64,000 nucleotides of DNA from an uncultured Gammaproteobacteria bacterium (GTDB lineage: Bacteria; Patescibacteriota; Microgenomatia; Levybacterales; UBA12049). The notes under the pieces were generated by a model. That model was not told the origin of the DNA. It did no database searches and was given only the letters and a program-made list of their open reading frames with translations. Location of the stretch: positions 833,955 through 897,954 of the forward strand of contig OZ246394.1 of the NCBI GenBank assembly GCA_965230895.1. Direction: 5' to 3'. This document shows positions 5,120 to 35,439 of the stretch, one piece after another. Each line of letters starts with the position of its first letter. Position 1 is the stretch's first letter. Made by a program: the position numbers and the translations under genes.

Positions 5120-6808
5120 TTATTCTTTTGGAGATTCTACGAGTATATATGCAGATTCTGCATATGGGTAAGATATCACCTTCTCATTTTCAGGTAAGAC
5201 AATATTTCTTGTCGGATAAGAAAACTCTTTCAAAACAGCCTTCCCTGCTGCACTATCTTTATCAGTAACGAATAATGTTTTCTTCGATGTAGGATACTTA
5301 TCCCAATTAATTTTCTCAAATCGATATTTGCCTATCTTTTCAGCTGTTAATAAAAGTCCATCTTCTTTGTAGGAAACATTTTTATGATAGATCTCCGGAT
5401 GAAATTTTGTATAAAACACTAATCCTGTATAGGAGAAATCTGTTTTAGGGTCAATAATAATTGCGTCATATTTGCCTTCGTTTGCAGCCAGATATTTACT
5501 CAACTCTGATTCTTGAGAACGCCATATTTTTGCCTGATTGATAGGGAAAACAAAGAAATATGTCACCATGTATGTTAGCACCGCATATGAAACAACAAAG
5601 ATTGATAATATTTGTAATCCCCGTTTAAAAATCAGCTGCTTAACTTTAGTTATGTATTCCCATGCACTTACTGCACCATATGCGGAAAATACAACAAGAG
5701 GGATAACTTGCAAGAAACTTCTCGTTGGATGTGGTACTTCTTGAGTCATGGCAATTACTGCAACCTCAAGTACAAACCATAGGAAGAAAAAGAGAAGGAA
5801 TTTCTCTCTCCTTTTCCATGCAGTCGCGAATCCGATTACTAACGTTATTAATTCAAATATATAGAAGAGTCCATGACCAGCCACTCCGTTTACAGTCTTT
5901 GGTCCAGCCAAAAAGAAAAAATCAATTGAGAATGAGTGGATGAGATTTTTGCAATATTCCCAGATGACAAGCAAATATGAATTGAAAATAAGTTTGGTGA
6001 AAACCTCAGGCAAAAGTACTAAATAGCTTCGGAATTCCATATGTTGCGTCTTAATGAATGGACCATTAAGGAACAGCCCAGATGTCTGATCAACTGTTTT
6101 AGCCATAGAAAGTGTGGCAATAAGAAAAGGCAGCAATGTGACGAAACTAAGTACTATACCAGTAATCTTTGTTGTCACTGACCATCGCGCTATATCTTTA
6201 TAGTGAATTGCTATTAACAAAAGTACTAAAATTGGTGCCATTAGTCGTGTAACATTGTATGCATAGAGGGATAATCCAAAAGCAAAAATGGATATTATCA
6301 AGAACCATATATTTCCTTTTTTCTTTATAGCTAAAGTAAAAAATAGCGATCCTAATAATGCCAAAGATGTTGCTACATTTACCTCAAATCCAGTCCTCGA
6401 AAAGAAAAACTGCCATGGATTGAAAGCCAAGAATAGAGCAGAAGCAACAGCAAAATCATTCCTTTTGGAAGTAATTTTAACTAAAAAGAATAATGAGATG
6501 ATCGCAATTATTCCAAATAACGCGGATGGTAAACGTACAGCAAAAGGTGTAACTCCAAAAACTTTTTCTGATGCAGCAGTTAGATAGATATAAACAGGCA
6601 ATTTATTATCATTAAAGGATTTAAAATATAAAGGGTACGAAACACTATGTTCATCTTTGCCTGTTTCGAGGATAGAATATGCGTTATACCCAATACCAGA
6701 TTCGTCTTTATTGAGGCCTGCAGGTATTGACCCGAGTTGATAAAAGCGGAGAAATAAACTAACACCAAAGAGGAGAACAATAAAAGCTATAAGAAGTTTT
6801 TTTACCAT
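5120..6808 (-). CDS. GT-C fold membrane glycosyltransferase, GT39/PMT family (4-amino-arabinose/mannosyltransferase-like)
   Basis: RFYQLGSIPAGLNKDESGIGYNAYS…LPVYIYL…FAVRLPSALFG matches the PMT_2/ArnT N-terminal signature. Multiple TM helices and a C-terminal soluble domain. Confidence 0.7.
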   Translation of the reverse strand: MVKKLLIAFIVLLFGVSLFLRFYQLGSIPAGLNKDESGIGYNAYSILETGKDEHSVSYPLYFKSFNDNKLPVYIYLTAASEKVFGVTPFAVRLPSALFGIIAIISLFFLVKITSKRNDFAVASALFLAFNPWQFFFSRTGFEVNVATSLALLGSLFFTLAIKKKGNIWFLIISIFAFGLSLYAYNVTRLMAPILVLLLIAIHYKDIARWSVTTKITGIVLSFVTLLPFLIATLSMAKTVDQTSGLFLNGPFIKTQHMEFRSYLVLLPEVFTKLIFNSYLLVIWEYCKNLIHSFSIDFFFLAGPKTVNGVAGHGLFYIFELITLVIGFATAWKRREKFLLFFFLWFVLEVAVIAMTQEVPHPTRSFLQVIPLVVFSAYGAVSAWEYITKVKQLIFKRGLQILSIFVVSYAVLTYMVTYFFVFPINQAKIWRSQESELSKYLAANEGKYDAIIIDPKTDFSYTGLVFYTKFHPEIYHKNVSYKEDGLLLTAEKIGKYRFEKINWDKYPTSKKTLFVTDKDSAAGKAVLKEFSYPTRNIVLPENEKVISYPYAESAYILVESPKE

Positions 6809-11693: not shown

Positions 11694-14600
11694 CTAAAGG
11701 TTCTTAATATTTATGTTTAATTGATCGGGTTCACCCTTACCGCTTAGTGGTTTTAGGAAGAGTTCTCCAGTATCATCTTTATATATATCTACACCAGATT
11801 GTTGACCTTTAAGATCGTGGATATCAAAGCCTGCTTTCTTTAGCATTTCTATTTCTCCTGAGTTTAATCTCTTCATTTGTGCAGATGCGTTAATTGCATC
11901 AGTTGCATTAAGAATTTTTCCTGCTTTAATTCCTTTTGCTGCAAGTTTAACTTCGCCAAATATAAAGCTTGCACCAATATCAAAACCCGCACCTCCTTTG
12001 TCAGCTAAACTTGAATTTGGATTTCTTAGAGTATTAACAGCTTCTCTATATAATGAGTTATATATTGCTGTAGCTTGTGGTTTTAATACATCCCTTCCTC
12101 CACTCGTATCTTTCTGAGGCTGATTGTTACCTGCACCTGTATTGTAAACGCTATTGTTAATGGAACCATTTTGAATAGATTTTGTCACAACCACATAATT
12201 ATAATAAGTTGCTGTAGTAGGCTTTTGATAATACGCATTCAAAGCTTGATTATATTTAAGAATTTCGTTCACATGTCCAGACGGATCAGTGTACTTAACA
12301 GGATTATTTTGGACATAGGAATAACTATTTAACGTTTGTGGCTCATATACGTTTTTTACAACAAGATCTGGTTGCGTAAACCTCCTCATGTCTGAACTAT
12401 AGTATCGGGCATTATAATAATTCAGTCCTGTCTCACTATCCTTCTCCTGTCCTGTATATTGGAACTTACTCTTCCCTCCACCAGACTTCACCACACCCCA
12501 AGGATCATATGAAGTTTCTTCAGACACAGATCCTCCAGAGTTAGTTAACAAACTCGCAGATCCGAGATGGTCATTTTGATAGTAGAACCTGTTACCACTG
12601 TTATCTCTCTTTGAAAGAAGCTCTCCATTGACCCAGTAATATGCAGTATTCTGTGCAGAACCTCCTACTGGAGTCTTGGTCTCATATCCATCACTCCATG
12701 AGACCACAGTATTTGCGAGAGTCCCAGTGACATAATTCTTCTTCACCATACGGAGACCGTTGTAGTCATAGACATACTCAGCAATAGTATGACTGTTCCC
12801 ACACTCTTTAACTTTAGACAACTGATTTGCTTCATTATATTCATAACATTTCGTCCCATCAGACGTTAAATTCCCATTCGCATCATACGCATATACTGGA
12901 TGCCAGACATTGAAATTATCAAATATTGCTGATGTTGTAGAGGCTTCAGAACTCCATGTACCTACTTGCTGACCGACAATCATCGATGACACAGGGAAAG
13001 GATTGGCGACAGATGCGAAATTACTCCATGTTCCACCATCAGCTGAAGTATCAAAGTACGTCGTACCAGCTGATTCACGTATGCGGAACCATTTATGGAC
13101 AGCTGGATTATAATCATCCTGTGCCAACCAATTAGATGTGCCATTTACTTTTTTGTACGCTCGGATCTTATTTTCTCCGATAAAGAAGAAGAATTGGTTG
13201 GAATTATCTCCATCGACAATGGTGTAGAGTGGGAAGACTTCCCATGAACCTAATGATTGATTCCCAGCATTCACTACCTGCGTAACCACTGAAGAGTTCG
13301 TAAGGTTGTATGCATTACTACTATCAATGCCATAATATCCACCACCTGCGTTACTTGTCGCTGTGAATTGCTGTGCAGAAACAGTCGCGTTGCTTCCACC
13401 CCAGTTCACCCATCTTCCACTATCTATACTTCCCGTACTCCAGTCGTCTACCAAAGTAGCAGTCGGTGCACTCGCATAATTGAAATTATCAAATGTTGCA
13501 CTTGTCGTGGATCCTTCGCTACTCCATGTACCGACTTCTGAACCGATAACCATTTCTGTCACAGCAAATGGATTTGCAACTGATGCAAAATTTGTCCATG
13601 TCGTGCCATTTGCTGAAGTATCAAAATACGTTGTGCCACCAGATTCTCGGATACGGAACCATTTGTGGACTGCAGGATTGTAGTCATCTTGAGCAAGCCA
13701 ATTAGAAGCACCATTTACTTTCTTGTATGCACGAAGCTTGCCCTCTCCGATAAAGAAGAAGAATTGGTTGGAGCTATCGCCATCAATATATGCATATATC
13801 GGATAGACTTCCCAGGATCCGATGCTTTGATTGCCTGCATTGACGACCTCATTGACGATTGAAGAACTCGTCAGATCATACAACTTACCATTTACATCAC
13901 TATCAACTCCATAATATCCACCGCCTGTTGTACTTGTCATTGCAAGTTGATTGCTAGAGACTGTGACTTGTCCACCACCCCAAATATTCCACTTCGTACT
14001 ATTAATAGTCCCAGATGACCACGTGTCAAAAAGTGATGATGTCAAAGGTGTACCAGATCCATTTACATGAGGAGGAGCTACTTTCTCAGTTGACGAAGTC
14101 ATCGCATGGACTTTGCCGTTGGCACCATATCCATAATCAGTATCTACTCCACTATCAGTGAATTTAGTCAGATTACCAATGGAGCTATACTGATATGCAT
14201 AATTGTATCCTGCGGATTCTGAAGCAGTTTTTAGTCGATCAAGATCATCATAGGTAAATGTCTGCGTTTTACTATCTACTGCATCTGTAATACTTGCAAC
14301 GTTACCCACATTATCATAGGCATAGTTCAAGTCTTGCAGACTGCTTGTCTGAATTCTATTTAATCGGAAGTCATTGGTATTGTATGTATAATTCGTCGTT
14401 AATCCATTGTTGAAATTCTTCTGTGTAATCTTCCCCAACGCATTGTAATTCACATTGCTGACGACATTACTGACCGATTCAATCTCTCCCTGATTATTGT
14501 ACGTATTGGTAATAACTTCACTGTCAGGATTTGTTTGTGTTCTGACTCGATCCATCGGATCATACGCAAATTGTGTCGTCTTGGTGACACCACCGACAGT

Positions 14601-17600
14601 TCTGGCTTCCGCAGTTTTGCGAAGAAGATTGTCATAGGTGTAGGAAACACTTCCCGCAGCATCAGTCACACTCGTTAATGTCCCTTTCCTGCTATTCCCA
14701 TCATAGGTGTAGACGACATCAGTATTTGTAGGATAATCTGTCTTCTTGAGTCGATTAATCTCATCATAGGTCTTTACAACTTGCACATCTCTGTTGTCGG
14801 TTTGTTTTGTGAGATTGCCCACTGCGTCATATTCATATTCCCACGTTCCCATGTCAGGATCAGTCATAGATGTTTTACGACCCAAAGCATCATAGGTAAA
14901 AGTAATATCATTGTCTTCATCGTCTGTAATTTGCATTAATAAATCTCGTGAATCATATGCATATGTTGTTTCATATGTTGCTGCGTCATTTACTTCCTCA
15001 ACTTTGACAATCTTATCGAATGCATTTTTATATTCTTTCTTTACGTTACCATTTTCATCAGTTGTTGTTTCTTTCCAGTGGTCATAGGCAATTGTTTTAT
15101 TGTCACCTTTTGGATTGGTAATTGTTACAGGTCTTCCAATTGCATCATATGTTGTTTGTGTATTTCGGATACCACTTAATGGATTTCGATAATAATCATA
15201 GCTATCATCTTCATGTGGAACAGTCACTTTATTGACTTGCCCAGTCGAATCATAATAGGTATTTGTCACGATTTGTTTTGCTGAGGATGTAGCTTCTGCT
15301 TCTGTTCGTGTCGAAATAGTTCGTCCCAGTCCGTCGATCCATGTATATGTATCAAGCGTTGCAGAGGAAGAACCAGTATTTTCTTTCTTTGAAACAAGTG
15401 TCCCATCTACTCCAGCGGTGTAATAGGTGTATTTTGTTGTTGGATAGGTACTGTTATCACCTGGTTTTATCTCTTTGGTAAGCCTTCCATAGACATCATA
15501 TTCATAATCTGTGGTATTACCATTTGGATCAGTTTTGTAGAGAAGATTTCCGGTTCCCAAATCATAATGGACATAGGTTTCATGGTCTTTAGCGTTCATG
15601 CTAAAAGTAGGATATGTTCCTGTCGTATCATAATTTGTGTATGTATAATGTCCATTCGCGTCCTCAACTTCTGTCTGATTTCCAAAAGAATCGTACGTGT
15701 AATTTGTCGTCGGATCGGTCGTAAACAAACCATCAGTCCACTTTACTTCTTTGGTCAAATTACCTTTTGATGGAGCATCACCTAATCCAGAATGTGAATC
15801 ATAATAGAATGAAGTTTCACTTATTTTTGTCGAATCATTTGATGCTTTGAGTGTCGTCTTTTTGGCTGTATTGACGATCCAATCAGTTGTATTGTACGTA
15901 TATTCATTATATGTATAACGCTCGTCCCCACTAACTCCTGTGTCTCCCAATTCAGATTTCTTTGTCACGTTGCCATAACTATCATATTCAAAGTTTGTTT
16001 GCTTTATCTTTGGATTACTAGCTGAGCCATCATAGGTTAAGATTTTCTCTTCTGTTTGTTTCGTCACGGTTACACCATTTGTCGTTGTATAACTCCATGT
16101 TGGCTGCGTCTCACGATATGGATTGTTTGAGCTATCACGTTCTTGCAGCTCACTCAACTTCCCTGTAAGCGTTTCATATTGATGGAAGACATATTTTTTC
16201 TTTGATCCATTTGGCTCAACTGTATTGACGATAGAAAATCCCTGGAACTGTTTAAGATTATGGTCATAAAATCCATCTTGATAACTATATGTTGTGACAT
16301 CATTTGTTTCTTGATCATTGTCCAAACCGTTATTGACAGTCATTTTAGAAACAACCCATACAGGGAAAGAGAGATCAGATTTACTGTCACTACCCGTATT
16401 GTCATAAATTGTTGATGGCTTATATTCAAAATTAACTACTCCGCCTCTATCTGTTGTTACTTGTTTAAGAAGATGAGGAGCATTTCCGTTATTTTTATAA
16501 ACCTTCCATGATGAAAAATCTCCCTTCACAATATCAGGGAGCCCATCACCAGTAACATCAGTCAATTTTGTTTTATTATCATTAGCATTTATATCAACAT
16601 TTGCAGAATACTCTATCCAATTGTCCCATTGATCTGTCCAATGATCGCCCCTACTGACGAGAACCTTCCATCTATCAGCTCCACCTGGATCCTGATTTTC
16701 GTTCCTGACAATATCAATAAGCCCATCCCCATTAGCGTCAGATATTGTCGATTGAGGCTCTTGGAAATGTGCATTGACGGAATAATCAAGCCATATTGTA
16801 AAGCCCCTGAACCCGCTACCAGTATTGAGCCAAACATACCACGTAGCCCAATTGCCATCGTAAACAGTACGGACAACATCTGATATACCATCATTATTTA
16901 CATCAATCAAACGTACTTGAGGACTTCCAAGTCCTGCTGGCATATTTGTTCCATCAACCCAAACATCACGAGTAGTACTCCAACCTGATCCAGTATTTTT
17001 AAATACTTCCCACTGATAACCTCCGTTATTTGCTTTTGTATGGACGATATCAGGAAGTCCATCTCCGGTCATATCAGCTAAAGTGACATCATTCTCTCGA
17101 AGTTTTATAGATCCATCAACACCACTAAGATTCGTCCAATTTTCAGCTGTAGTATTCCAACTAGTACCAGTATTCCTAAATACTTGCCATACATCTGCAT
17201 CAGGAGAACGAACAATATCCGGTAAATTGTCCCCTGTTACATCAATCAATCGTACATACGGAGTGAATTGTGGATCCAGTCCAGCATTTATACCAGCATT
17301 AGTCACCCAATTTGTCCATTGAGTTGGCCATGAGGTTCCCGTATTTATTAAGACTTTCCATGTAAAGTTAATACCTCCATTAAAATCTGTTCCAACCACA
17401 TCCATATAACCATCACCATTTACATCTGACAAAGTGACATTATCTTGCCCTAAATTAAGATTTATATCTTGATTAATCCATGTCTCAGGCGTGGCATTCC
17501 AGCTTCGAGGCTCATTATTATATTCGAAAGAGGTGGTTAAGTAATTAGATCTATCATCGCCTTTCTCAATTATAGAAGTTAAAAGTGGTTGATTACTGAA

Positions 17601-18491
17601 AGTCGGTGTGTAATTCAAATCATACTCTCTGACAAGATCCTCTCCTATGTATACTTCTATATTGTCAAGATTATTGGGATCAAACATGTAACAACCTTGA
17701 ACGAACACTGGACGTGTATAGCCATGTGCAGGGTTGGAACTTCCACTATCTACATAATGAAATTTGATAATACGGGATTGATCGTTGTTATATTTGATTC
17801 TTTCCAGATAGGACCACCCATACGTCTCACCATATGTATAATAAATCTTATTACTATTGGTATCTGTCACAAGGTCGAGATTCCACATGGTAACAAAATC
17901 ACGATCATTACATTCTCGTTCTGATTGCGATTCATAACCGAAACGGTACTTCGTCCCATCTGGTGTGGTCACAACCCAATACTCACCTTTGACATTAGAC
18001 CCCCCAGTAAGCTTTTGAATTTTCAAATAAGATTCTATCTTTGTATGGTACAAACCGTCTGAAGATACATACACAAGTTCATATACCGCACCTTTGAAAT
18101 ATAATTTAAATTTATCATCGCTTGTATTGGTCGGAGTTCCGTTAACGTCACGCTGAATATACTGCTGGTTTAGAAGCCATCCAATACCAGAGTTCATTTT
18201 CATATCCCTCAAACCTGTACTACTATAATTTATTGAAACTTCAGGTGTTAGATCATTGGTACCTTTTGGAACTTTTATTGGATAAGAATAATTCGCAGAA
18301 CCAGTAAAGATATCAGTCGTAAATCTATCACGTTGATATTTTGGTTCTGTAGTATTTTGGATAGAATAATCAGCAAGTATATCACCGCCCCCAGAAAAGA
18401 GAAGAGCAAAAGAACCAAGGAAACCTAAAGCTAACTTTAATTTAAACGAATGCATATGGTAGTAGGGACAGCTACTATCGATACTCAACAC
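11694..18491 (-). CDS. secreted RHS/YD-repeat polymorphic toxin, TcB/TcC-fusion-like, with SpvB-type N-domain, FG-GAP-like repeats, YD shell, RHS core and a variable C-terminal toxin domain
   Basis: Signal peptide, with the probable ATG start at 18455. SpvB-like GSANYSYPIKVPKG…INYSS…GIGWLL, then six or more DxxGDGxxDxV repeats. Dozens of YD repeats follow (YTYDALGRKT, YEYDAVGNLT…). The core ends in NPVKYTDPSGH (~12273), followed by an unassigned ~190-aa tail. Confidence 0.85.
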   Translation of the reverse strand: MLSIDSSCPYYHMHSFKLKLALGFLGSFALLFSGGGDILADYSIQNTTEPKYQRDRFTTDIFTGSANYSYPIKVPKGTNDLTPEVSINYSSTGLRDMKMNSGIGWLLNQQYIQRDVNGTPTNTSDDKFKLYFKGAVYELVYVSSDGLYHTKIESYLKIQKLTGGSNVKGEYWVVTTPDGTKYRFGYESQSERECNDRDFVTMWNLDLVTDTNSNKIYYTYGETYGWSYLERIKYNNDQSRIIKFHYVDSGSSNPAHGYTRPVFVQGCYMFDPNNLDNIEVYIGEDLVREYDLNYTPTFSNQPLLTSIIEKGDDRSNYLTTSFEYNNEPRSWNATPETWINQDINLNLGQDNVTLSDVNGDGYMDVVGTDFNGGINFTWKVLINTGTSWPTQWTNWVTNAGINAGLDPQFTPYVRLIDVTGDNLPDIVRSPDADVWQVFRNTGTSWNTTAENWTNLSGVDGSIKLRENDVTLADMTGDGLPDIVHTKANNGGYQWEVFKNTGSGWSTTRDVWVDGTNMPAGLGSPQVRLIDVNNDGISDVVRTVYDGNWATWYVWLNTGSGFRGFTIWLDYSVNAHFQEPQSTISDANGDGLIDIVRNENQDPGGADRWKVLVSRGDHWTDQWDNWIEYSANVDINANDNKTKLTDVTGDGLPDIVKGDFSSWKVYKNNGNAPHLLKQVTTDRGGVVNFEYKPSTIYDNTGSDSKSDLSFPVWVVSKMTVNNGLDNDQETNDVTTYSYQDGFYDHNLKQFQGFSIVNTVEPNGSKKKYVFHQYETLTGKLSELQERDSSNNPYRETQPTWSYTTTNGVTVTKQTEEKILTYDGSASNPKIKQTNFEYDSYGNVTKKSELGDTGVSGDERYTYNEYTYNTTDWIVNTAKKTTLKASNDSTKISETSFYYDSHSGLGDAPSKGNLTKEVKWTDGLFTTDPTTNYTYDSFGNQTEVEDANGHYTYTNYDTTGTYPTFSMNAKDHETYVHYDLGTGNLLYKTDPNGNTTDYEYDVYGRLTKEIKPGDNSTYPTTKYTYYTAGVDGTLVSKKENTGSSSATLDTYTWIDGLGRTISTRTEAEATSSAKQIVTNTYYDSTGQVNKVTVPHEDDSYDYYRNPLSGIRNTQTTYDAIGRPVTITNPKGDNKTIAYDHWKETTTDENGNVKKEYKNAFDKIVKVEEVNDAATYETTYAYDSRDLLMQITDDEDNDITFTYDALGRKTSMTDPDMGTWEYEYDAVGNLTKQTDNRDVQVVKTYDEINRLKKTDYPTNTDVVYTYDGNSRKGTLTSVTDAAGSVSYTYDNLLRKTAEARTVGGVTKTTQFAYDPMDRVRTQTNPDSEVITNTYNNQGEIESVSNVVSNVNYNALGKITQKNFNNGLTTNYTYNTNDFRLNRIQTSSLQDLNYAYDNVGNVASITDAVDSKTQTFTYDDLDRLKTASESAGYNYAYQYSSIGNLTKFTDSGVDTDYGYGANGKVHAMTSSTEKVAPPHVNGSGTPLTSSLFDTWSSGTINSTKWNIWGGGQVTVSSNQLAMTSTTGGGYYGVDSDVNGKLYDLTSSSIVNEVVNAGNQSIGSWEVYPIYAYIDGDSSNQFFFFIGEGKLRAYKKVNGASNWLAQDDYNPAVHKWFRIRESGGTTYFDTSANGTTWTNFASVANPFAVTEMVIGSEVGTWSSEGSTTSATFDNFNYASAPTATLVDDWSTGSIDSGRWVNWGGSNATVSAQQFTATSNAGGGYYGIDSSNAYNLTNSSVVTQVVNAGNQSLGSWEVFPLYTIVDGDNSNQFFFFIGENKIRAYKKVNGTSNWLAQDDYNPAVHKWFRIRESAGTTYFDTSADGGTWSNFASVANPFPVSSMIVGQQVGTWSSEASTTSAIFDNFNVWHPVYAYDANGNLTSDGTKCYEYNEANQLSKVKECGNSHTIAEYVYDYNGLRMVKKNYVTGTLANTVVSWSDGYETKTPVGGSAQNTAYYWVNGELLSKRDNSGNRFYYQNDHLGSASLLTNSGGSVSEETSYDPWGVVKSGGGKSKFQYTGQEKDSETGLNYYNARYYSSDMRRFTQPDLVVKNVYEPQTLNSYSYVQNNPVKYTDPSGHVNEILKYNQALNAYYQKPTTATYYNYVVVTKSIQNGSINNSVYNTGAGNNQPQKDTSGGRDVLKPQATAIYNSLYREAVNTLRNPNSSLADKGGAGFDIGASFIFGEVKLAAKGIKAGKILNATDAINASAQMKRLNSGEIEMLKKAGFDIHDLKGQQSGVDIYKDDTGELFLKPLSGKGEPDQLNINIKNL
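12910..14065 (-). repeat. tandem in-frame duplication (2 x ~570 bp) inside the RHS gene, encoding two ~190-aa β-sandwich/lectin-like modules
   Basis: ccgataaagaagaagaattggttgga occurs at 13177 and again at 13747. The protein copies SGTINSTKWNIWGGG…FFFFIGEGKLRAYKKVNG…TFDNFN and SGSIDSGRWVNWGGS…FFFFIGENKIRAYKKVNG…IFDNFN are ~70% identical. Confidence 0.8.
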
Positions 18492-27078: not shown

Positions 27079-27501
27079 TTACTCATCAATCTGCTTTGAA
27101 ATCCTTTGCAACAATTCATCCATCGAGAAGGGTTTCTCCATAAAATCATCAGCTCCCGCCTTCAAAGCTGACCAACCGATATCTCGGCTTGCTGAAAACA
27201 GAATAATTGGAATATTCTTTGTTTCGGAATTATTTTTAAAGAATCTACAAAAATCTCTCCCATCCTGCCCTTGCATCCATACATCCATAAGGATTAAATC
27301 TATTTCCTTAGAATTGATATCATAGAGTTTTTCAGGATCTGTAATGATTGATACCTGATAGCCTTCATCCATGAGCATTAACTTAACAGCTTCGCAGATC
27401 GTTTTATCATCATCTGCAATGAGGACTCTTTTATTATATTTCGCTTGATATTTCTGGGACCCTCCAGATATATACGGATTGTATTTTTGATGGAATTCCA
27501 T
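27079..27501 (-). CDS. single-domain response regulator (CheY-like receiver)
   Basis: LIADDD…LILMDVWM… receiver signature and a conserved Lys. Confidence 0.75.
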   Translation of the reverse strand: MEFHQKYNPYISGGSQKYQAKYNKRVLIADDDKTICEAVKLMLMDEGYQVSIITDPEKLYDINSKEIDLILMDVWMQGQDGRDFCRFFKNNSETKNIPIILFSASRDIGWSALKAGADDFMEKPFSMDELLQRISKQIDE

Positions 27502-28228: not shown

Positions 28229-30598
28229 CTATATTGCCTGATGTGCGGTAACTACTGGCTCTTCTTCAACTTCTTTATCCGCTACTTTGGCTTTTGGAAG
28301 AGGCTTTGTAAGAGCAATCTTCAATACTTCATCCATCTGACTTACGAACTTAAAGTGTAAGTCTTTGACAACTTCTTGTGGGATATCTTCAAGATCCTTC
28401 TTATTATCCTTTGGTAAGATAATAGTTTTCAAACCAGCTCTGTGCGCAGCAATAACCTTTTCTTTTACTCCGCCAATTTCAAGCGCTCGTCCTCGAAGGG
28501 TAACTTCACCAGTCATAGCAACTTTGCGATTAACCGGAATCTTTGTGAGTGCAGAAACAATTGCTGTTGAAATTGCGAGTCCTGCTGAAGGACCATCTTT
28601 TGGAACTGCACCTTCAGGAACGTGTACATGAATATCAGTTTTCTGGAATAATTTATCTGAGATTCCCATTGTATGAGCTCGTGATCTGATATATGAAAGT
28701 GCTGCTTGAGCAGACTCCTTCATAACATCTCCCAATTGACCGGTCAATGTAAGGACACCTTTACCTGGCATGAGTGCAACTTCGATAAAGAGGATATCTC
28801 CACCAGCTTCAGTCCATGCTAATCCGGTGGTCTGACCTATTTCATCTTTCTTTTCCATCATTGTACCGTGATACTTCATAGGACCAAGATACTTTGGAAT
28901 ATCTGCAGCTTTAATTACAATCTTTCCTTTTTCACCCTCAGCTACTTTCTTTGCAACTTTTCGGAGAACCGTAGCGATTCTTCTTTCGAGATTACGGACA
29001 CCAGCTTCACGAGTGTAATGATGAATGATGTATTGCAAAGCTTCATCCGTTAATTCAACTTGTTTATCCTTCAAACCATGATTTTCAAGTTGCTTGTTGA
29101 TCAAGAAGTCATGAGAGATCTTAAACTTTTCGTCATGTGTATATCCTGCGAAATGAATGATTTCAAGTCGGTCACGAAGTGCCGGTGGGATTGTATCCAA
29201 AACGTTTGCTGTAGTGATAAACATTACATTTGAGAGATCAAATGGAACTTCAAGGTAATGATCTGAAAATGTACCATTTTGTTCTGGATCCAGAGCTTCA
29301 AGAAGCGCACTTGATGGATCTCCTCTGAAATCTGATCCTACTTTATCAATTTCATCAAGCATAAAGACTGGATTTTTTGTACCTGAATCTTTGATACCCT
29401 GGATAATACGTCCTGGAAGTGCGCCAACGTATGTTCGGCGGTGTCCCCGAATTTCAGCTTCATCACGGATACCACCGAGTGATACACGAACGAACTTTCG
29501 ACCTAAAGCACGGGCAATTGATTTACCAATTGAAGTCTTACCAACACCTGGAGGCCCTGCAAAACAAAGGATCGGACCCTTCATCTTTCCTGAAAGCTTA
29601 TGAACTGCGAGGTATTCGATAATACGCTCTTTTGCTTTGGATAAACCATAATGATCCTGATCCAAAATCTTTTCCGCAGTCTTGATATTTGAACTATCTT
29701 TACTTTCCTGACCCCATGGAAGTGCAACCATCAAATCGAGATAGTTACGGATATATCCAGCTTCAGGATTGAATTGATTCATGTTCTGGAGCTTATTAAG
29801 TTCTTTGCGTGCCTTTTCTTCAACTTCTTGAGGCATCTTTGCTTCTTTAATCTTGTTGAGTAACACTCGGATTTCTGAGTTTTCTTCTTTATCACCTAAT
29901 TCTTCTTCAATGGTTCGGAGTCTTTCCCGAAGCATTGCTTCTCGTGCACCTTTTTCAAACCGTTCTTGTGTCTTTGAAGCAATTCGGCGTTCTAATTCAA
30001 GAATCTTGATTTCTTTTGCAAGAAGCTCAGTTAATTTCTGCAAACGTGCTTTTACATCAGTCATTTCAAGAAGATCTTGACGTTCTTGAGGCTTCAAATC
30101 CAATGCTGAAGCAATAAGATCTGAAAGTTCTGCTGGAGAAGTTTCTGACATGATATTCATGAATAAAAGAAAATCTGCTGACTTACCGAAGTTCATAGCT
30201 TTTCGGAATTCATTTGTTAGGTGATTGCAGAGCGCTTTTATTTCTTCATTCTTTTCAACTTCTTCTGGGAGCTCGACAACTCGTGCCATAAAGTATGAAT
30301 CATGTCTCTCATATCCAAGGATCTTAACACGGGACAAACCTCGAACTTGCGCATTGATTTCACCATCAGTTCTGATCATGCGTTCGATTCGGGATAATGT
30401 ACCGATCTCATAGAGATCATCAGAACTTGGATCATTGAGACGAGCATTCTTTTGAAGAACAAAACATACAACTCGTTCTTTTTGAAATGCTGATTCAAGG
30501 GCTGCAAGACTCTTTGGACGTCCAAAGGTGAGGACTGAATCCGTACTTGGGAAGATTATTCCGTCTCTAATTGGGATTACTGGGACAACTTTTTCCAT
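28229..30598 (-). CDS. lon: ATP-dependent Lon protease
   Basis: LON N-domain, GPPGVGKTS Walker A, DEIDK Walker B and the PKDGPSAG catalytic Ser motif. Confidence 0.95.
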   Translation of the reverse strand: MEKVVPVIPIRDGIIFPSTDSVLTFGRPKSLAALESAFQKERVVCFVLQKNARLNDPSSDDLYEIGTLSRIERMIRTDGEINAQVRGLSRVKILGYERHDSYFMARVVELPEEVEKNEEIKALCNHLTNEFRKAMNFGKSADFLLFMNIMSETSPAELSDLIASALDLKPQERQDLLEMTDVKARLQKLTELLAKEIKILELERRIASKTQERFEKGAREAMLRERLRTIEEELGDKEENSEIRVLLNKIKEAKMPQEVEEKARKELNKLQNMNQFNPEAGYIRNYLDLMVALPWGQESKDSSNIKTAEKILDQDHYGLSKAKERIIEYLAVHKLSGKMKGPILCFAGPPGVGKTSIGKSIARALGRKFVRVSLGGIRDEAEIRGHRRTYVGALPGRIIQGIKDSGTKNPVFMLDEIDKVGSDFRGDPSSALLEALDPEQNGTFSDHYLEVPFDLSNVMFITTANVLDTIPPALRDRLEIIHFAGYTHDEKFKISHDFLINKQLENHGLKDKQVELTDEALQYIIHHYTREAGVRNLERRIATVLRKVAKKVAEGEKGKIVIKAADIPKYLGPMKYHGTMMEKKDEIGQTTGLAWTEAGGDILFIEVALMPGKGVLTLTGQLGDVMKESAQAALSYIRSRAHTMGISDKLFQKTDIHVHVPEGAVPKDGPSAGLAISTAIVSALTKIPVNRKVAMTGEVTLRGRALEIGGVKEKVIAAHRAGLKTIILPKDNKKDLEDIPQEVVKDLHFKFVSQMDEVLKIALTKPLPKAKVADKEVEEEPVVTAHQAI

Positions 30599-30647
30599 AA
30601 TTTATTTAAGTAATTTACTGACTGTTTGTGGATGTCTGTAAATCGTA

Positions 30648-30682
30648 TTAGCAATCTATCATAGATTCTGCTAATTGTCAAT
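30648..30682 (-). promoter_or_regulatory. lon promoter (-35 TTGACA at 30677-30682) overlapped by a CIRCE-like inverted repeat (30648..30674)
   Basis: TTAGCAATC-tatcataga-TTCTGCTAA compared with CIRCE TTAGCACTC-N9-GAGTGCTAA gives 14 of 18 half-site positions. An extended palindrome TTAGCA..ATCTAT c ATAGATTCTGCTAA overlaps the spacer and -10 region. Confidence 0.35.
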
Positions 30683-30788
30683 GACTCAGACTAGATCATT
30701 GTTTTTTCTATAAGTACTGAGCCAATTTAGGATTACAATGTATCAACTTAACCTAAAACTGTCAACCCTAATTCGCGTATTGAAAGTA

Positions 30789-31154
30789 TTATTTAGCCTT
30801 AGTATGCTTCTTCACCATATAGAGAAGATCATCTATATTAAAGGGTTTTAGAAGAAAATCATCAGCTCCAGCTTCCTTTGTAATTTTTTCAGTTTCATTA
30901 TTTGCGGACATCATAACGAGAGGAATATGTTTAGTGTGCGGTTTGGATTTAATATTTTTGGCAATTTCGCCACCGTCTTCTCCGAAAAGCCAAATATCCA
31001 ATAGGATCATATCCGGAACATGTTTATCCACTGTCTTGTAAACAAGTTCACCTTGATCTGCAGTTAAGACATCATAGCCTTCGTTTTCTAAAATTATCTT
31101 AACTACTTCTATGATTGCTTTATCGTCTTCTGCGACGAGTATCTTTTTCTTCAT
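30789..31154 (-). CDS. single-domain response regulator (receiver), co-transcribed with sortase
   Basis: VAEDD…ILLDIWL… receiver signature; the start abuts the sortase stop. Confidence 0.75.
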   Translation of the reverse strand: MKKKILVAEDDKAIIEVVKIILENEGYDVLTADQGELVYKTVDKHVPDMILLDIWLFGEDGGEIAKNIKSKPHTKHIPLVMMSANNETEKITKEAGADDFLLKPFNIDDLLYMVKKHTKAK

Positions 31155-31763
31155 CTACTTTTCTACTAATTTCGAATATATCACGTGTCTATCCGAATAT
31201 CCGTTTTCTTTATTCCAATCACCATCACATGTGATGAGATTAAGCATTGGGGCTGAAGCATTACCAAAAACCTTTTCTATAGGAAATTCTTTATTTGGAT
31301 ATTTCTCAGAATCTGTGACTTCAAATGTCCAATCCTTTCCCTTGTCATCAGTTACAATTATTTCGTCTCCAACTTTCAACTTTGCTAAGTCCCAGAATAC
31401 AGCAGCTGTTCCATCTTTTTTATCATAATGGCCGGCAAGAACAGCATTTCCGTTCATTCCTGGTCGAAACCCTGGATTATACCAAGCTGTATTTTCATCA
31501 TTGCTAGGAGTATCCATTCTTCCTTGAGAATCATTTGCTACGGATTCTATTTCCGCATCAACGTTAATTGATGGGATACGAACCTTCTTTGGCAAACCTG
31601 GAAGTGGAGCTTCAGGCTTTTTAGCCAGTTCTTCTTCTGTTTGTTGAGACTGGGTTGAAAGGACTTGTTTGTCATTATCATTTTTGACGAAGTGTGAGGC
31701 AGATGTCCCGATTATTATCCCAGAAACAATAATTACGACTATTGTTACGAGTACTTTTAACAT
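31155..31763 (-). CDS. sortase family transpeptidase
   Basis: N-terminal TM anchor, catalytic His (LAGHY), TLITC-type NLITCDG Cys motif and downstream Arg. Confidence 0.8.
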   Translation of the reverse strand: MLKVLVTIVVIIVSGIIIGTSASHFVKNDNDKQVLSTQSQQTEEELAKKPEAPLPGLPKKVRIPSINVDAEIESVANDSQGRMDTPSNDENTAWYNPGFRPGMNGNAVLAGHYDKKDGTAAVFWDLAKLKVGDEIIVTDDKGKDWTFEVTDSEKYPNKEFPIEKVFGNASAPMLNLITCDGDWNKENGYSDRHVIYSKLVEK

Positions 31764-31793
31764 AATAAATTAAAATTTTAATTTGCTTTCAAC

Positions 31794-31833
31794 GGAGCAA
31801 GATGTATCAACAATGGTCAACACATCTTGCTCC
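31794..31833 (-). promoter_or_regulatory. perfect 12-bp stem hairpin between the small peptide gene and the sortase gene (attenuator or stability element)
   Basis: GGAGCAAGATGT-N16-ACATCTTGCTCC. Confidence 0.4.
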
Positions 31834-31871
31834 ATATATTTAAACGACATATTAGTTTAACTAATAGAAGC

Positions 31872-32054
31872 TTAGTTAGCTCTGAGACCAGTTGCTGGTG
31901 CTTCACTTGGCATAGCTGCACTAGTAGTTGGTGTTACAGTTGTCGTGTTGTTTGTTGTGTTTGTTGGTGTTGCTGTTTGTGCAAATGTCATTGTTGCCGC
32001 TGCCATTGCTGAAACTGCGAATACACCTGTTGCGATTACTGCTTTTTTGATCAT
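31872..32054 (-). CDS. small secreted Thr-rich peptide (signal peptide plus ~35 aa) ending in …EAPATGLRAN
   Basis: Strong SD (GGGAGGTG) before the ATG. A cleavable signal peptide, then a T/N-rich mature part. The gene sits first in the operon with the sortase. Confidence 0.5.
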   Translation of the reverse strand: MIKKAVIATGVFAVSAMAAATMTFAQTATPTNTTNNTTTVTPTTSAAMPSEAPATGLRAN

Positions 32055-32448
32055 ATACTCACCTCCCTTCGTGCAATTGAATTTACTCTTTTATTTTAAA
32101 GCTTAAACGAGTAGAAGCTTCACCGTTCCCATCAATAAACTGATGAGGAACGATAATTCATCCTAACATACTTTTTATTTTGACGTCAACCGCATAGCTA
32201 TTTTCTTACATCTAAAAGTACCTGACTCTTTAAATATTCATACATAAGGATTAGTTTTTTACATTAAAAAAGCAGTTTTTTTGATTTTTTCTATTAAGTA
32301 ATTACATAAAACTTAAGAAAAATAGCTCAACATTTCTTTCTAATTCCTTACAAGATTTTGGTAGATCTCTTATTGTTAAGCATTATCCTAACTCTATAAC
32401 GAACAGATTAATAAATTTACGATATGTATGAAAGGAGGTGAATAGATA

Positions 32449-32634
32449 ATGGCAAAAACAATGAAAAAAGGAAAAGGTCGTGGATTTGCTTCAATGAGCA
32501 AAGACAAACAGCGAGAAATCGCAAGTAAAGGAGGTCGTGCTGCACATAGCAAAGGTACAGCTCATAAGTGGACGAGCGAAGAAGCTCGAAAAGCTGGACA
32601 ACTTGGTGGCCGAGCACGCCAAAAGAAGTCTTAA
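32449..32634 (+). CDS. KGG-repeat general stress protein (YciG/Con-10-like)
   Basis: SKGGRAAHSKG… KGG repeats and a perfect SD (AAAGGAGGTG). Confidence 0.65.
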   Translation: MAKTMKKGKGRGFASMSKDKQREIASKGGRAAHSKGTAHKWTSEEARKAGQLGGRARQKKS

Positions 32635-32724
32635 TGACTTTAAAAGTCTTAACCGTTATATACGGGAAGCGAAATGATTTCGCTAGGTACTGCCCAATGC
32701 AGAGAAAGGAGGTGTAAAAAACGT

Positions 32725-32976
32725 ATGAATATTTTATCTTGGTTAATCTTTGGAACTATTGTAGGAATCGTTGCAAATGCAATTGATCCTTCGCCTAATA
32801 GAGGAGGTATCTTTGGATCTATCTTATTAGGAATTGTAGGAGCATTGGTCGGTGGATTCCTAGCCAATCTTATATTCGGTATAACGGTAACCGGATTTAA
32901 TGTAACATCATTCTTAGTCGCTATTGCAGGATCGCTATTATTACTCTTTGTCGGTAAGGCAATGCGGAGAGCCTAA
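32725..32976 (+). CDS. GlsB/YeaQ/YmgE family (transglycosylase-associated) stress membrane protein
   Basis: MNILSWLIFGTIVGIVANAI…GGIFGSILLGIVGALVGGFLANL is the Transgly_assoc signature. The SD is AAAGGAGGTG. Confidence 0.8.
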   Translation: MNILSWLIFGTIVGIVANAIDPSPNRGGIFGSILLGIVGALVGGFLANLIFGITVTGFNVTSFLVAIAGSLLLLFVGKAMRRA

Positions 32977-33007
32977 GAAATATGTTTAACAATGTTAAAG
33001 GGAGATG

Positions 33008-33055
33008 AGCAATCCCAGTAGTTACGAAGAAATAATTGGGATTGCTTTTCTCTCT
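33008..33055 (+). terminator. rho-independent terminator after the YeaQ-like gene
   Basis: AGCAATCCCA-N19-TGGGATTGCT followed by TTTCTCTCT. Confidence 0.5.
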
Positions 33056-33086
33056 AAATAAAATCTCTTGAAAGGAGGTGAATAAT

Positions 33087-33395
33087 ATGCAACTTATGCA
33101 AAATCAACAAAAAAAGAATAAACAAATAAGCCCACTTGCTGCTGGAATAACCGGTGTGGTGATTGGAGCAGCAGGAGCAGCTGCTATTGCGCTATCTGAT
33201 AAAGATACACGCAAAAAAGTAACTGTTAAAGCAATGAAAGCAAAGGATGATCTTCAGAAATGGAGTACAAAGACTGTCAAAGATATGCAAAACCGCAGAG
33301 AAAAGATAAAAACTGACTCTAAAGAAACAATCGATGACAATAAAGCAGCTGTCTCAAAGCAAATAAAAGATAAAATTGATGAGACGTTCAAATAA
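33087..33395 (+). CDS. YtxH-like small stress protein (N-terminal TM plus coiled-coil)
   Basis: GAGAAAIALSDKDTRKK… pattern; SD GGAGGTG 6 nt before the ATG at 33087. Confidence 0.5.
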   Translation: MQLMQNQQKKNKQISPLAAGITGVVIGAAGAAAIALSDKDTRKKVTVKAMKAKDDLQKWSTKTVKDMQNRREKIKTDSKETIDDNKAAVSKQIKDKIDETFK

Positions 33396-33423
33396 GCAAA
33401 TACATTAAAGCATTAAAAGGAGG

Positions 33424-33455
33424 AGATCTAATCTTCTCCTTTTTGCTTTAGAGAG
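33424..33455. terminator. bidirectional intrinsic terminator between the convergent stress gene and crp
   Basis: AAAAGGAGGAGAT-ctaa-ATCTTCTCCTTTT with A- and T-tracts on either side. Confidence 0.55.
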
Positions 33456-34137
33456 CTGTTTGAAGATGTGAACTGTTTTGCGAAAATAATGATATTTCTT
33501 CTTCAAATCGTTTAATATTTTTAATGGAGAGCAGCTTCCCAGACCTGCCTATAAACCCTTTCTTCTCAAGCTTTTTCATCTCAAGAGAGGTGGTTTCTCT
33601 CGTCAATCCGACTAATGCCGCGATATCACGATGTGTCAAAGGAACTTCAATAAGTACTTCATTATCCCCACTTGGCTTTCCGAAGCGCTTTGCACAAATA
33701 AGTAACGTTGTCGACACCTTCACATACGCATTACTTAAGATAAGGTATTCCATCCTGCTAAAGACGCTATCAACTTTACCCATTGCTTGAGAGGCTAAAT
33801 CATATAAGATATCGGGTTTAGTAGTAATAAACTTAATGAATTCATCTTGAGGAGCACTCCATAATTCGAGTTGCGTAAGTGCTTCAAGATAATATCCATT
33901 TACATTTTTACTGAAACCTGACGTAAAAGGGAAAAAGTCTTTTGGTTTGAGAATCGATAAAGTTAGCTCTTCACCATCCTCTGTAATTTTATATACACGC
34001 ACAAAACCATTCTTTATATAAAACACACTTTTGGGAGAATCATTTGGATGGAGGATCATAACACGCTTTTTATAATAGTGGAGAGGGTTTCGTTCAAAGA
34101 ATTCATCTAACTGAGTAGCAATTGTCTTTTTTATCAT
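33448..34137 (-). CDS. Crp/Fnr family transcriptional regulator
   Basis: N-terminal cNMP-binding β-roll and C-terminal HTH (RDIAALVGLTRETTSLEMKKLEKKGFI). Confidence 0.8.
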   Translation of the reverse strand: MIKKTIATQLDEFFERNPLHYYKKRVMILHPNDSPKSVFYIKNGFVRVYKITEDGEELTLSILKPKDFFPFTSGFSKNVNGYYLEALTQLELWSAPQDEFIKFITTKPDILYDLASQAMGKVDSVFSRMEYLILSNAYVKVSTTLLICAKRFGKPSGDNEVLIEVPLTHRDIAALVGLTRETTSLEMKKLEKKGFIGRSGKLLSIKNIKRFEEEISLFSQNSSHLQTAL

Positions 34138-34266
34138 ATTCTTAGATTAATATATATAATACGAATACGTCTTGATAGAAAAATGTGTATTATGTAAGAA
34201 ATCATTAAGAAATGGCTATAGACTCTTTGTGATTCGCTTGTAATTTGGTAAGATTACCTTTGTAAA

Positions 34267-35439
34267 ATGAAAATTGATATTTTGGAGCAGATATATCTGA
34301 CTTCCACGGATCTTCTCAATGCAAATTCACCGAAAAAGCTTGAAACTACAATCGTAGAATCAGCGAAAAGATTAAGCGGAGCTGATTACTCACAACTTTA
34401 TTTTAATCAAAAAGACAGATTGAAAAAGGTGCAAAGCTCAGATGCCGAGGTAAAGAAATGTACCATGGTTAAAATGCCAGGGTTTAAAAAATACGCATTA
34501 AAACATAATATTGTTTCTGTGCCCCAGGATGTTTTAAAAACATGGAATATTGATCATATGCCTCCTAATATCCATGCAATTAACATTCTTCCCCTTCTAC
34601 ATAAAGAGGCTACATTAGGTTTTGTTGTATTATTCTTTACAGAGAAAAAGGAGATTCCGGATCATATTAAACATGCACTCTTTACACTCAGCCAGATAGC
34701 GGTTTTGGCTGTAACAAAGTCCAGAATTCAAGAGGAATCAAAAAAGGCTTTAGAAATTAGAGATAGATTTATATCATTAGCATCACATGAATTGAGAACT
34801 CCTCTAACATCGCTCCATGGGTATATTCAACTATTACATGCACGAATGACTGGCAAAGATTCCGTGGAAGCACGCTGGATTAACGAACTCCATATTGAAA
34901 GTATCCGTTTAACTACTCTTGTAAAAGAACTTCTTGATGTAAATAGAATTAAACAAGGCCAATTTGCTTTTGTATTTAGTGAAGTTCCTATGCAAGAGGT
35001 CATCCAACGAGCAATTGAACATTACCGATTAACAAGCGCTGATCACCCCATTGTTTTTCAGAATAAACTCGAAGATGACGGCAAAGTTGTTGGAGACTTC
35101 GATAAATTAGTTGAAATGGTGTCAGGACTCTTAGGGAATGCTATTAAATTCTCAAAACCTCAGGAGAAAATTACAATTACGCTTAAAAATTTGCAAGGTA
35201 CACTTTCGCTTACAGTAAGAGATACTGGAAAAGGAATAAGTAAAAAGGATCTTGCTGCAGTATTTGATGGATTTTATAAAAGTTCGCATGCAAGTCATTT
35301 AGAAGGAATGGGTGTAGGATTACTTTTGGCAAAGCATATTGTAGAAAATCACCGTGGCAAGATTAAAATTACATCGAAAGAAAATAAAGGTACGAAAGTA
35401 GAAATTATTCTCCCGTCAATTAAAGCGACTCCCCTTTAA
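34267..35439 (+). CDS. cytoplasmic sensor histidine kinase (sensor domain, HisKA and HATPase_c)
   Basis: H-box SHELRTPLTSLHGY, N-box GNAIKFS, G1 DTGKGI and G2 GMGVGL; no TM helices. Confidence 0.85.
   Translation: MKIDILEQIYLTSTDLLNANSPKKLETTIVESAKRLSGADYSQLYFNQKDRLKKVQSSDAEVKKCTMVKMPGFKKYALKHNIVSVPQDVLKTWNIDHMPPNIHAINILPLLHKEATLGFVVLFFTEKKEIPDHIKHALFTLSQIAVLAVTKSRIQEESKKALEIRDRFISLASHELRTPLTSLHGYIQLLHARMTGKDSVEARWINELHIESIRLTTLVKELLDVNRIKQGQFAFVFSEVPMQEVIQRAIEHYRLTSADHPIVFQNKLEDDGKVVGDFDKLVEMVSGLLGNAIKFSKPQEKITITLKNLQGTLSLTVRDTGKGISKKDLAAVFDGFYKSSHASHLEGMGVGLLLAKHIVENHRGKIKITSKENKGTKVEIILPSIKATPL

Follow-up and report, generated by a model that had tools for sequence, protein, structure and literature searches.

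The 64,000-nucleotide stretch of contig OZ246394.1 analysed here (the window) comes from an uncultured bacterium that GTDB places in the Levybacterales, within the Patescibacteria or Candidate Phyla Radiation (CPR). Its minus strand carries, in this order, a 60-amino acid (aa) open reading frame (ORF) for a small secreted-type peptide, an RNA hairpin, a gene for a sortase and a gene for a stand-alone receiver (REC) domain. A preliminary description of the locus, made from its sequence, had listed these elements, and every detail of that observation was confirmed on the minus strand. The features are as follows.

32054..31872, minus strand: peptide ORF, 60 aa, MIKKAVIATGVFAVSAMAAATMTFAQTATPTNTTNNTTTVTPTTSAAMPSEAPATGLRAN
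32060..32067, minus strand: Shine-Dalgarno (SD) sequence GGGAGGTG, read directly from the sequence, 5 nt before the peptide ATG
32160..32189, minus strand: candidate promoter-like TTGACG-18-TAGGAT upstream of the peptide gene, weak and based on consensus only
31980..32054, minus strand: predicted signal peptide, peptide residues 1-25 (MIKK, hydrophobic core, TFA), with a predicted signal peptidase I site A↓Q
31890..31979, minus strand: predicted mature peptide Q26-T55, a low-complexity T/N/P/A core ending in MPSEAPAT
31872..31889, minus strand: predicted leaving group G56-LRAN and stop codon, with no hydrophobic anchor and no clear basic tail
31792..31835, minus strand: 20-bp RNA hairpin between the peptide and sortase genes, with a perfect 12-bp outer stem at 31794..31833
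31155..31763, minus strand: class F-type sortase, 202 aa (Pfam and NCBIfam), with a membrane helix at about residues 3-22, a Q/E/K/P-rich linker (23-57) and a catalytic domain (58-202)
31430..31428, 31229..31227 and 31190..31188, minus strand: sortase catalytic residues His112, Cys179 and Arg192, respectively
30789..31154, minus strand: stand-alone REC, 121 aa, Response_reg match with E = 2.3e-24

The strong SD in front of the peptide gene and the perfect 12-bp stem, which extends to 20 bp when read as sense-strand RNA, are as first described, and so is the junction of the last two genes, where the REC ATG directly follows the sortase TAG with zero spacer. The intergenic spacer between the peptide and sortase genes is 108 nt long and consists mostly of the hairpin. 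The number of promoter-like sites in the region was not above that in shuffled sequences, and TTGACG-18-TAGGAT is therefore a candidate only.

The peptide begins with MIKK, continues with an 18-residue hydrophobic stretch and TFA↓Q, and then with 30 residues dominated by T, N, P and A, and ends in MPSEAPATG-LRAN. The n-h-c pattern of a signal peptide is present and the rule of small residues at positions -3 and -1 is kept across 27 homologues; on this pattern, a Sec signal peptide cleaved at A↓Q is predicted. In alignments of 27 and of 40 homologues, P53, T55, G56 and Q26, the last being the first residue (+1) past the predicted signal peptidase site, are invariant. P49 is invariant in the larger alignment and nearly so in the smaller one, and the family motif can be written as [V/M]PxxAPxT↓G. 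The sequence [AP]PxTG was found in 120 of the 120 best peptide homologues, APATG being the form in the window.

The motif had initially been noted as LPXTG-like but devoid of the usual hydrophobic and basic sorting tail, and the lack of a hydrophobic segment held for all 120 best homologues. In the window peptide only LRAN follows TG, and no hydrophobic membrane-spanning segment is present after the motif. The tails of the 120 best homologues are 1-6 residues long, never 0, with one exception of 12; the absence of zero-length tails fits the need of a sortase for a leaving group. The residue after TG is R in 35/120, K in 4/120 and M, F or L in 70/120, and the window tail contains a single Arg. 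Neither the window peptide nor 40 homologues matched the Gram_pos_anchor or TIGR01167 anchor models, and searches of Pfam and NCBIfam returned nothing relevant for the window peptide (E <= 1) or for the same 40 homologues (E <= 0.01). An anchor hidden behind stop-codon read-through or recoding was considered and rejected: the downstream frame contains further stops and no hydrophobic stretch. In comparison with the classical SrtA/LPXTG system, the Sec signal peptide, the PxTG with invariant P, T and G, and a membrane-anchored Cys transpeptidase with a His-Cys-Arg triad are the same. The differences are the missing hydrophobic segment, the lack of a clear charged tail, Ala or Pro at position 1 within an extended [V/M]PxxAPxTG, and a cargo of about 30 low-complexity residues without a folded domain.

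An exhaustive hidden Markov model (HMM) search placed at least 336 clusters (at 50% identity) in the peptide family; the best 150 of these 336 are all 49-89 aa long, and the homologues carry no Pfam domain and are named only "hypothetical". Between the window and its relative L009 (loci are numbered with the prefix L), the peptide ORF differs at 22 codons synonymously and at 15 non-synonymously over 60 codons, and all length differences among orthologues are multiples of three. Because many of the codon changes are synonymous only and the indels preserve the frame, the 60-aa ORF is, judged by its pattern of substitution, a real coding sequence under purifying selection; the possibility that it is not conserved, raised at the outset, did not materialise.

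The association of the peptide with the sortase was examined from both sides. When one genome per species was scanned starting from the sortase, 80 loci were obtained, and in 56 of them a peptide ORF of 42-90 aa lies directly upstream of the sortase gene on the same strand. In these 56 loci the ORF encodes a signal peptide and a core rich in T, S and P, and after its xPxTG come 1-9 residues and never a hydrophobic tail; most of the remaining loci are truncated at a contig end or belong to other sortase subclades. Starting from the peptide, with four homologues chosen from long contigs, a sortase gene was found within 24-140 nt downstream in all four, with mutually unrelated flanks (diacylglycerol kinase and ROK; a GAF histidine kinase; a major facilitator superfamily transporter and LysM; PBP1 and a PAS protein). 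Each sortase has a single peptide gene beside it, and tandem precursor copies were looked for and not found. In a neighbour-joining tree, the sortases with mini-substrates form one contiguous block, apart from those whose neighbours carry conventional signals. A second peptide-hairpin-sortase module (L084-L086) is present in the same genome outside the window; its peptide, P0124, ends in SSAPATGRAE, and its sortase, P0021, is 55% identical to the window sortase. Downstream of this module lie copper-related genes (cupredoxin, DsbD-like and HMA). Its peptide gene is a point at which short-read contigs break, and the near-identical signal peptides of the two peptide genes may be the cause of the breaks.

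These comparisons show that the functional unit consists of peptide, hairpin and sortase, and the peptide-sortase cassette recurs across hundreds of uncultivated CPR/Patescibacteria lineages. One could still suppose that the small ORF is fortuitous or unrelated and that the sortase serves LPXTG proteins elsewhere, since the search for other substrates was confined to 64 kb of the genome, and sortases have been reported as near-ubiquitous in Microgenomates with no mention of a partner (Méheust et al. 2019, PMC6744442). We regard this as very improbable in view of the adjacency kept in 56/80 and 4/4 loci with unrelated flanks, the invariant P, T and G of the motif, the co-clustering of peptide presence with one sortase clade, the duplication of the pair as a pair in one genome, and the purifying selection on the ORF. 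One-to-one adjacency, a variant motif and joint inheritance also characterise SrtB with its NPQTN-type target and the class GN 'marine' sortase with its target. The targets of SrtB and class GN sortases are folded proteins with complete tripartite sorting signals.

Within the 64-kb window, no ORF of at least 40 aa combining xPxT[GAS] with a hydrophobic or basic tail was found. A 2265-aa ORF at 11694..18491 (minus strand), possibly a giant surface protein, lacks xPxT[GAS] within 45 residues of its C-terminus.

Related class F sortases with conventional neighbours were found in Jeotgalibacillus, in a Paceibacterota metagenome-assembled genome (MAG; L055) and in a Peregrinibacteria MAG (L079). 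The neighbour is upstream in each case and carries MPETG, LPETG or LPATG followed by a transmembrane (TM) segment and a basic tail; one complete signal reads MPETG-MGGAADQSNAG, TM segment, RKRVFQS, and the Jeotgalibacillus neighbour is a DUF4397 protein that matches Gram_pos_anchor. The mini-peptides stop exactly where the hydrophobic segment would start (APATG-MGGQ, APATG-FGGN, APATG-LGG). This correspondence, MPETGMGG plus TM segment against APATGMGG plus stop, gives a direct evolutionary link to classical substrates. In Chloroflexi, class F sortases (L027, L032, L053 and L064) have as neighbours Ferritin_2 proteins 220-270 aa long, whose C-termini read MP[SNR]TG followed by 11-15 non-hydrophobic residues; one of these proteins carries a Tat signal. 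We consider these proteins a second, independent kind of tailless candidate substrate. Because both the mini-peptides and the Chloroflexi Ferritin_2 proteins are in this state, tailless signals are a recurring property of this sortase lineage and no annotation accident.

The sortase itself covers the full profile (1-125) of Pfam PF04203 with E = 1.1e-23. Among NCBIfam models, class_F_sortase scored best (138.1 bits, E = 1.7e-40), followed by class E (38.7 bits, E = 9e-10). On these scores the enzyme is closest to class F, as a divergent subclade; homologues with 39-50% identity carry the NCBI label "class F sortase", and its closest relatives are from Levyibacteriota and other Microgenomates MAGs. 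An alignment of 22 sequences shows no variation at H112, R192 or C179, the last within NLITC, a TLxTC-like motif. In an AlphaFold2 model, the predicted local distance difference test (pLDDT) values averaged over 10-residue blocks were 83-98 for most of residues 51-202, with three blocks at 68-75. All 50 of the 50 Protein Data Bank (PDB) matches listed by a fold search were sortases (E from 5.7e-10 for the best to 2.1e-8 for the last), a result that indicates a generic sortase fold of no particular class, and a sequence search of solved structures returned only distant sortase E and A/B entries. The hydrophobic stretch V4-G19 (VLVTIVVIIVSGIIIG) follows MLK and precedes the polar linker. The enzyme is accordingly predicted to be membrane-anchored, with an extracytoplasmic catalytic domain and only about 2 cytoplasmic residues before the helix.

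The first characterised class F sortase is that of Propionibacterium (Cutibacterium) acnes (Di Girolamo et al. 2019, as cited in PMC8225981 and PMC13251363), which is described as a housekeeping enzyme for LPXTG proteins. Apart from this example, these papers state that no physiological role of class F is known, and PMC13251363 reports that Actinoplanes with a quadruple srtF deletion showed no phenotype. The window enzyme matches this class best by a wide margin, yet below its cut-off, and is paired with one dedicated tailless mini-substrate.

Folded as sense-strand RNA, the hairpin between the two genes (31835..31792) forms 20 bp including G-U pairs, with dG = -35.2 kcal/mol and z = -7.65, and none of 200 shuffled sequences folded as well. 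Its stem is followed by GUUGAAAGC. Hairpins of unrelated sequence, with z < -3, occupy the same peptide-sortase gap in 27 of 31 loci; U-rich tails follow the equivalent hairpins in L031, L063, L028 and L038. Among seven close relatives the stem is kept, three of its pairs showing compensatory changes, and the paralogous module of the same genome has a different hairpin of its own. A search of Rfam with 30400..32700 gave only a chance-level match (E = 0.55) on the wrong strand, and the hairpin was therefore rejected as a member of a known RNA family. Possible roles of the hairpin are to attenuate transcription or to shield the 3' end of a short mRNA for the peptide. The sortase ATG has no recognisable SD. 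Because a hairpin and a strong peptide SD are combined with the lack of a sortase SD, the layout suggests a design with much substrate and little enzyme. The idea of attenuated enzyme expression thus gains from the comparison: the hairpin is a conserved positional feature, consistent with an enzyme level below that of the substrate.

Taken together, these data favour, in our estimate at somewhat better than even chance, a dedicated sortase acting on an abundant mini-substrate that is probably ligated to peptidoglycan. The precursor would be made in large amounts owing to its strong SD, with the hairpin after its stop codon ending or stabilising most transcripts, and the sortase would be made in small amounts from read-through transcripts that lack an SD for it. 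The precursor would be exported by Sec, the signal peptide being its only membrane tether until cleaved. The sortase would then recognise [V/M]PxxAPxTG, cut between Thr55 and Gly56 and release GLRAN; the predicted T↓G bond lies within the stretches VPSEAPATGLRAN and AAMPSEAPATGLRAN. Its attack could occur while the precursor is still held by the signal peptide, or on a precursor diffusing in the narrow wall zone. The Thr/Pro/Ser-rich peptide of about 30 residues would be passed through its C-terminal Thr to an amine, the likeliest acceptor being a peptidoglycan precursor or cross-bridge. Peptidoglycan is the default acceptor of non-pilin sortase substrates. The signal peptidase cut would expose the invariant Gln, which would probably convert to pyroglutamate. 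Because such a product would have a pyroglutamate cap, an amide-linked C-terminus and a Pro-rich core, it should be protease-resistant, and the wall of these ultra-small CPR cells may be covered with a dense layer of it, possibly O-glycosylated.

O-glycosylation is plausible from the T/S/P composition of the peptide and from PMT_2 genes in the window. Two genes of this type (GT-C fold, protein-mannosyltransferase-like) lie at 563..2020 and 5120..6808, both on the minus strand; they are circumstantial candidates for such a modification.

Several points weigh against the proposed ligation. The support for it comes from genomics, from which the cleavage and the acceptor are deduced, and the scan for other substrates covered 64 kb of the genome. 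The class F score of the sortase, 138.1 bits, is below the curated cut-off of 166 bits. Position 1 of the motif is Ala or Pro and not Leu. In the window no U-tract follows the hairpin, and a scan for terminators made no call there, which leaves it a candidate terminator at most. A cleaved peptide without a C-terminal anchor could diffuse off before the sortase acts, and a signal peptide as strongly conserved as this one may have a fate other than simple removal. On the other side, the tail is not chemically required, since, according to PMC4723074, Staphylococcus aureus SrtA incorporates short exogenous anchor-less LPETG peptides into the wall.

The conservation of the signal peptide deserves separate consideration. 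Between the window and L005-L014, 22-25 of its 25 residues are identical (88-100%), and it is the most conserved part of the module; the catalytic domain of the sortase is only 52-61% identical in the same comparison, and the membrane helix of the sortase retains 7-16 of 23 residues. Since 22 synonymous and 15 non-synonymous changes are spread over only 60 codons, many of the synonymous ones must fall inside the signal-peptide segment. A signal peptide whose only fate is removal would not usually be conserved above the level of the catalytic domain. The conservation could reflect a role in retention or presentation of the precursor, the reading we prefer, or targeted secretion, by analogy with YSIRK signal peptides.

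A further alternative is that the hydrophobic segment is a permanent anchor. The product would then be a membrane-to-wall tether similar to Braun's lipoprotein (Lpp) of E. coli, in which the N-terminal segment stays in the membrane, the sortase links the C-terminal Thr to peptidoglycan and about 30 residues serve as a spacer. Such a tether would explain both the constancy of the N-terminus, with its many synonymous changes, and why no C-terminal anchor is needed, and the small, abundant-looking and C-terminally linked product would resemble Lpp. We nevertheless consider a tether rather unlikely: small residues at -3 and -1 and an invariant Gln at +1 point to cleavage of the signal peptide and to a function of the N-terminus that it exposes, and in the wider family the hydrophobic segment is free to diverge (5-15/25 identical). 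The likeness to Lpp is a functional analogy, that of a tiny abundant envelope polypeptide linked at its C-terminus to peptidoglycan by a Cys transpeptidase. Lpp, unlike the peptide, is a coiled-coil protein with a lipobox and a lipid anchor, and L,D-transpeptidases attach it through Lys; the two are not homologous.

Returning to a cleaved and wall-linked peptide, its composition bears on what the product might be. Over the 120 homologues, the median for the mature part is 30 aa and its composition is T (29%), P (22%), S (18%) and A (12%), or 81% T/P/S/A in all. The core is of low complexity and variable length (23-67 aa), with conservation confined to the ends. Only 7 of the 120 mature sequences include a Lys, and the mature window peptide has none. 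The sortase might conceivably polymerise the mini-peptides, with the alpha-amine of Gln serving, for instance, in a head-to-tail linkage, and so build a mucin-like, Thr/Pro-rich filament or coat. The invariant +1 Gln, unusual for sortase substrates, could be a nucleophile determinant in such a reaction, and a highly expressed subunit next to a dedicated sortase is the layout of a polymer system. Pili-like appendages occur on CPR cells. We think a sortase-built polymer improbable, since there is no Lys nucleophile and no pilin fold, and since an N-terminal Gln is prone to cyclise and would then block its own amine. We know of no precedent for alpha-amine polymerisation by a natural sortase. The sole CPR-specific pili in the literature we found, the Pam pili, are made of unrelated pilins joined by donor-strand exchange, and no sortase is among their proposed assembly components (bioRxiv 10.64898/2026.03.03.709456).

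The pilin-like reading suggested at first is accordingly weak. The operons of class C sortases share with the locus a subunit gene beside a dedicated sortase, with the subunit expected at the higher level, and differ from it by their pilin or Ig-like domains and pilin-motif Lys. A sortase-assembled pilin was rejected on the absence of a motif Lys and of Ig-like (CnaA/CnaB) domains and on the short mature part.

A broader form of the wall-ligation proposal is that class F-like sortases of CPR bacteria evolved tail-free sorting, in which the signal peptide would present the peptide and the product would be ligated en masse to peptidoglycan amines, or head to tail through Gln, into a probably glycosylated coat or filament. 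We put this forward as a speculation of low probability.

With respect to novelty, the enzyme class and the logic of a motif, a Cys transpeptidase and an adjacent dedicated target are already known. An anchor-less low-complexity substrate of about 30 residues, its wide distribution in CPR and its fixed cassette are not described in Pfam, NCBIfam or the literature searched. That literature dealt with class F sortases, with sortases of CPR/Patescibacteria, Microgenomates and Chloroflexi, and with tail-less signals, and no description of the peptide family was found in it. The CPR/Patescibacteria, a large share of bacterial diversity, have an essentially uncharacterised envelope, and the one-to-one pairing of a sortase with a tailless substrate gives a concrete hypothesis for a natural substrate and a new wall component. 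Predictors that require a motif, a hydrophobic segment and a charged tail would miss both the peptide family and the Chloroflexi Ferritin_2 neighbours. If the broader proposal is true, a peptide coat or filament would be a major, unrecognised component of the envelope of ultra-small bacteria, and class F sortases would gain their first physiological role. Users of sortase-mediated ligation could also be interested in an enzyme whose natural substrate is a short, soluble APxTG peptide.

The REC gene at the end of the unit matches positions 1-110 of the 111 of Response_reg, and its product has no output domain. The phospho-acceptor Asp53 (30998..30996), E9/D10/D11, S83 and K103 are all present, as read from the sequence. 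Only 12 of the 80 loci, all of them among the first 17 relatives, have a REC gene downstream of the sortase in the same orientation and within about 60 nt of it; in these 12 the spacer is up to 50 nt, or the genes overlap (L005). Neither the four peptide-first loci nor the paralogous module has REC in this place, and L015 keeps peptide, sortase, lon and the operator-like repeat in front of lon without REC. The 12 REC loci share a syntenic block, of which the first part is divergently oriented: HK-Crp-YtxH-GlsB-KGG (HK, histidine kinase), then peptide-sortase-REC-CIRCE-Lon (CIRCE, controlling inverted repeat of chaperone expression). Of the triad proposed in the preliminary description, the peptide-sortase pair is thus conserved and the REC is restricted to 12 loci, and the sortase-receiver fusion does not survive as the core of the module.

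REC is best seen as a co-transcribed neighbour specific to one Levyibacteria-like clade and no part of the enzyme system. Because the predicted cytoplasmic part of the sortase is only about 2 residues long, a cytoplasmic receiver would be unable to regulate it by contact. REC may instead tie expression of the locus to the adjacent stress/Lon block. Fusion proteins of REC and sortase were also looked for among the 120 listed sortase homologues: all have the Sortase Pfam domain and none has REC, the sole extra domain call being PUA_4 (PF20260) in one protein.

Outside the REC clade, HK, PAS or REC genes lie within about 2 kb of the module in L013, L018, L030, L044, L062, L075/L089 and L093, in differing orientations. 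The two-component association beyond the REC clade is suggestive at most of a weak general link and may be due to chance, the cases being too few and phylogenetically dependent.

These neighbours bear on the possibility of a signalling system resembling those of ribosomally synthesised and post-translationally modified peptides (RiPPs), in which the sortase would trim the C-terminus of the peptide or cyclise it and the product would be sensed through the neighbouring REC or HK. A precursor, a hairpin and an enzyme in this order are found in many RiPP and pheromone operons, REC is co-transcribed here, and HK or REC genes occur near the module, in varied arrangements, in the loci just named other than L093. 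A low-complexity core of such variable length, conserved only at its ends, would make a poor receptor ligand. The neighbouring HK has no membrane or extracellular sensor segment (only HisKA and HATPase_c were called), most loci have no two-component gene nearby, and RiPP-type modifying enzymes are not present. Signalling is, in our judgement, about as improbable as polymerisation.

A RiPP precursor, which the first observation had also suggested, was likewise rejected for want of a conserved core and of tailoring enzymes, the sortase being the only conserved neighbour. In RiPP and lantibiotic operons such as nisA-nisB, the layout of small precursor, hairpin and enzyme, with the implied excess of precursor, is the same as in the window; the differences are the lack here of a conserved core and of a RiPP tailoring enzyme, and the identity of the enzyme, a sortase. 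The wall-linked mini-substrate remains the reading we prefer.

Downstream, the unit is bounded by the following features.

30648..30674, strand not assigned: CIRCE-like inverted repeat TTAGCAATC-N9-TTCTGCTAA, the unit boundary, overlapping the promoter-like site of lon
28229..30598, minus strand: lon gene, downstream of the unit

The promoter-like site overlapped by the repeat is TTGACA-17-TAGATT, just upstream of lon. A CIRCE-like TTAGCA-N15-TGCTAA is kept upstream of lon in 15 related loci, among them L004-L009, L011, L012, L014-L017 and L020, a pattern that points to heat-shock regulation of Lon of the HrcA type in these CPR genomes. Because the repeat lies between REC and lon, lon would have a heat-shock-type operator of its own.

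On the other side of the unit, a stress/signalling block at 32449..35439 contains genes for a KGG-repeat protein, a Transgly_assoc (GlsB/YeaQ-type) protein, a YtxH-like protein, a Crp-family regulator and a cytoplasmic HisKA/HATPase kinase. This block is syntenic in L004-L014. A second stand-alone receiver gene is present downstream of lon, at 27079..27501.

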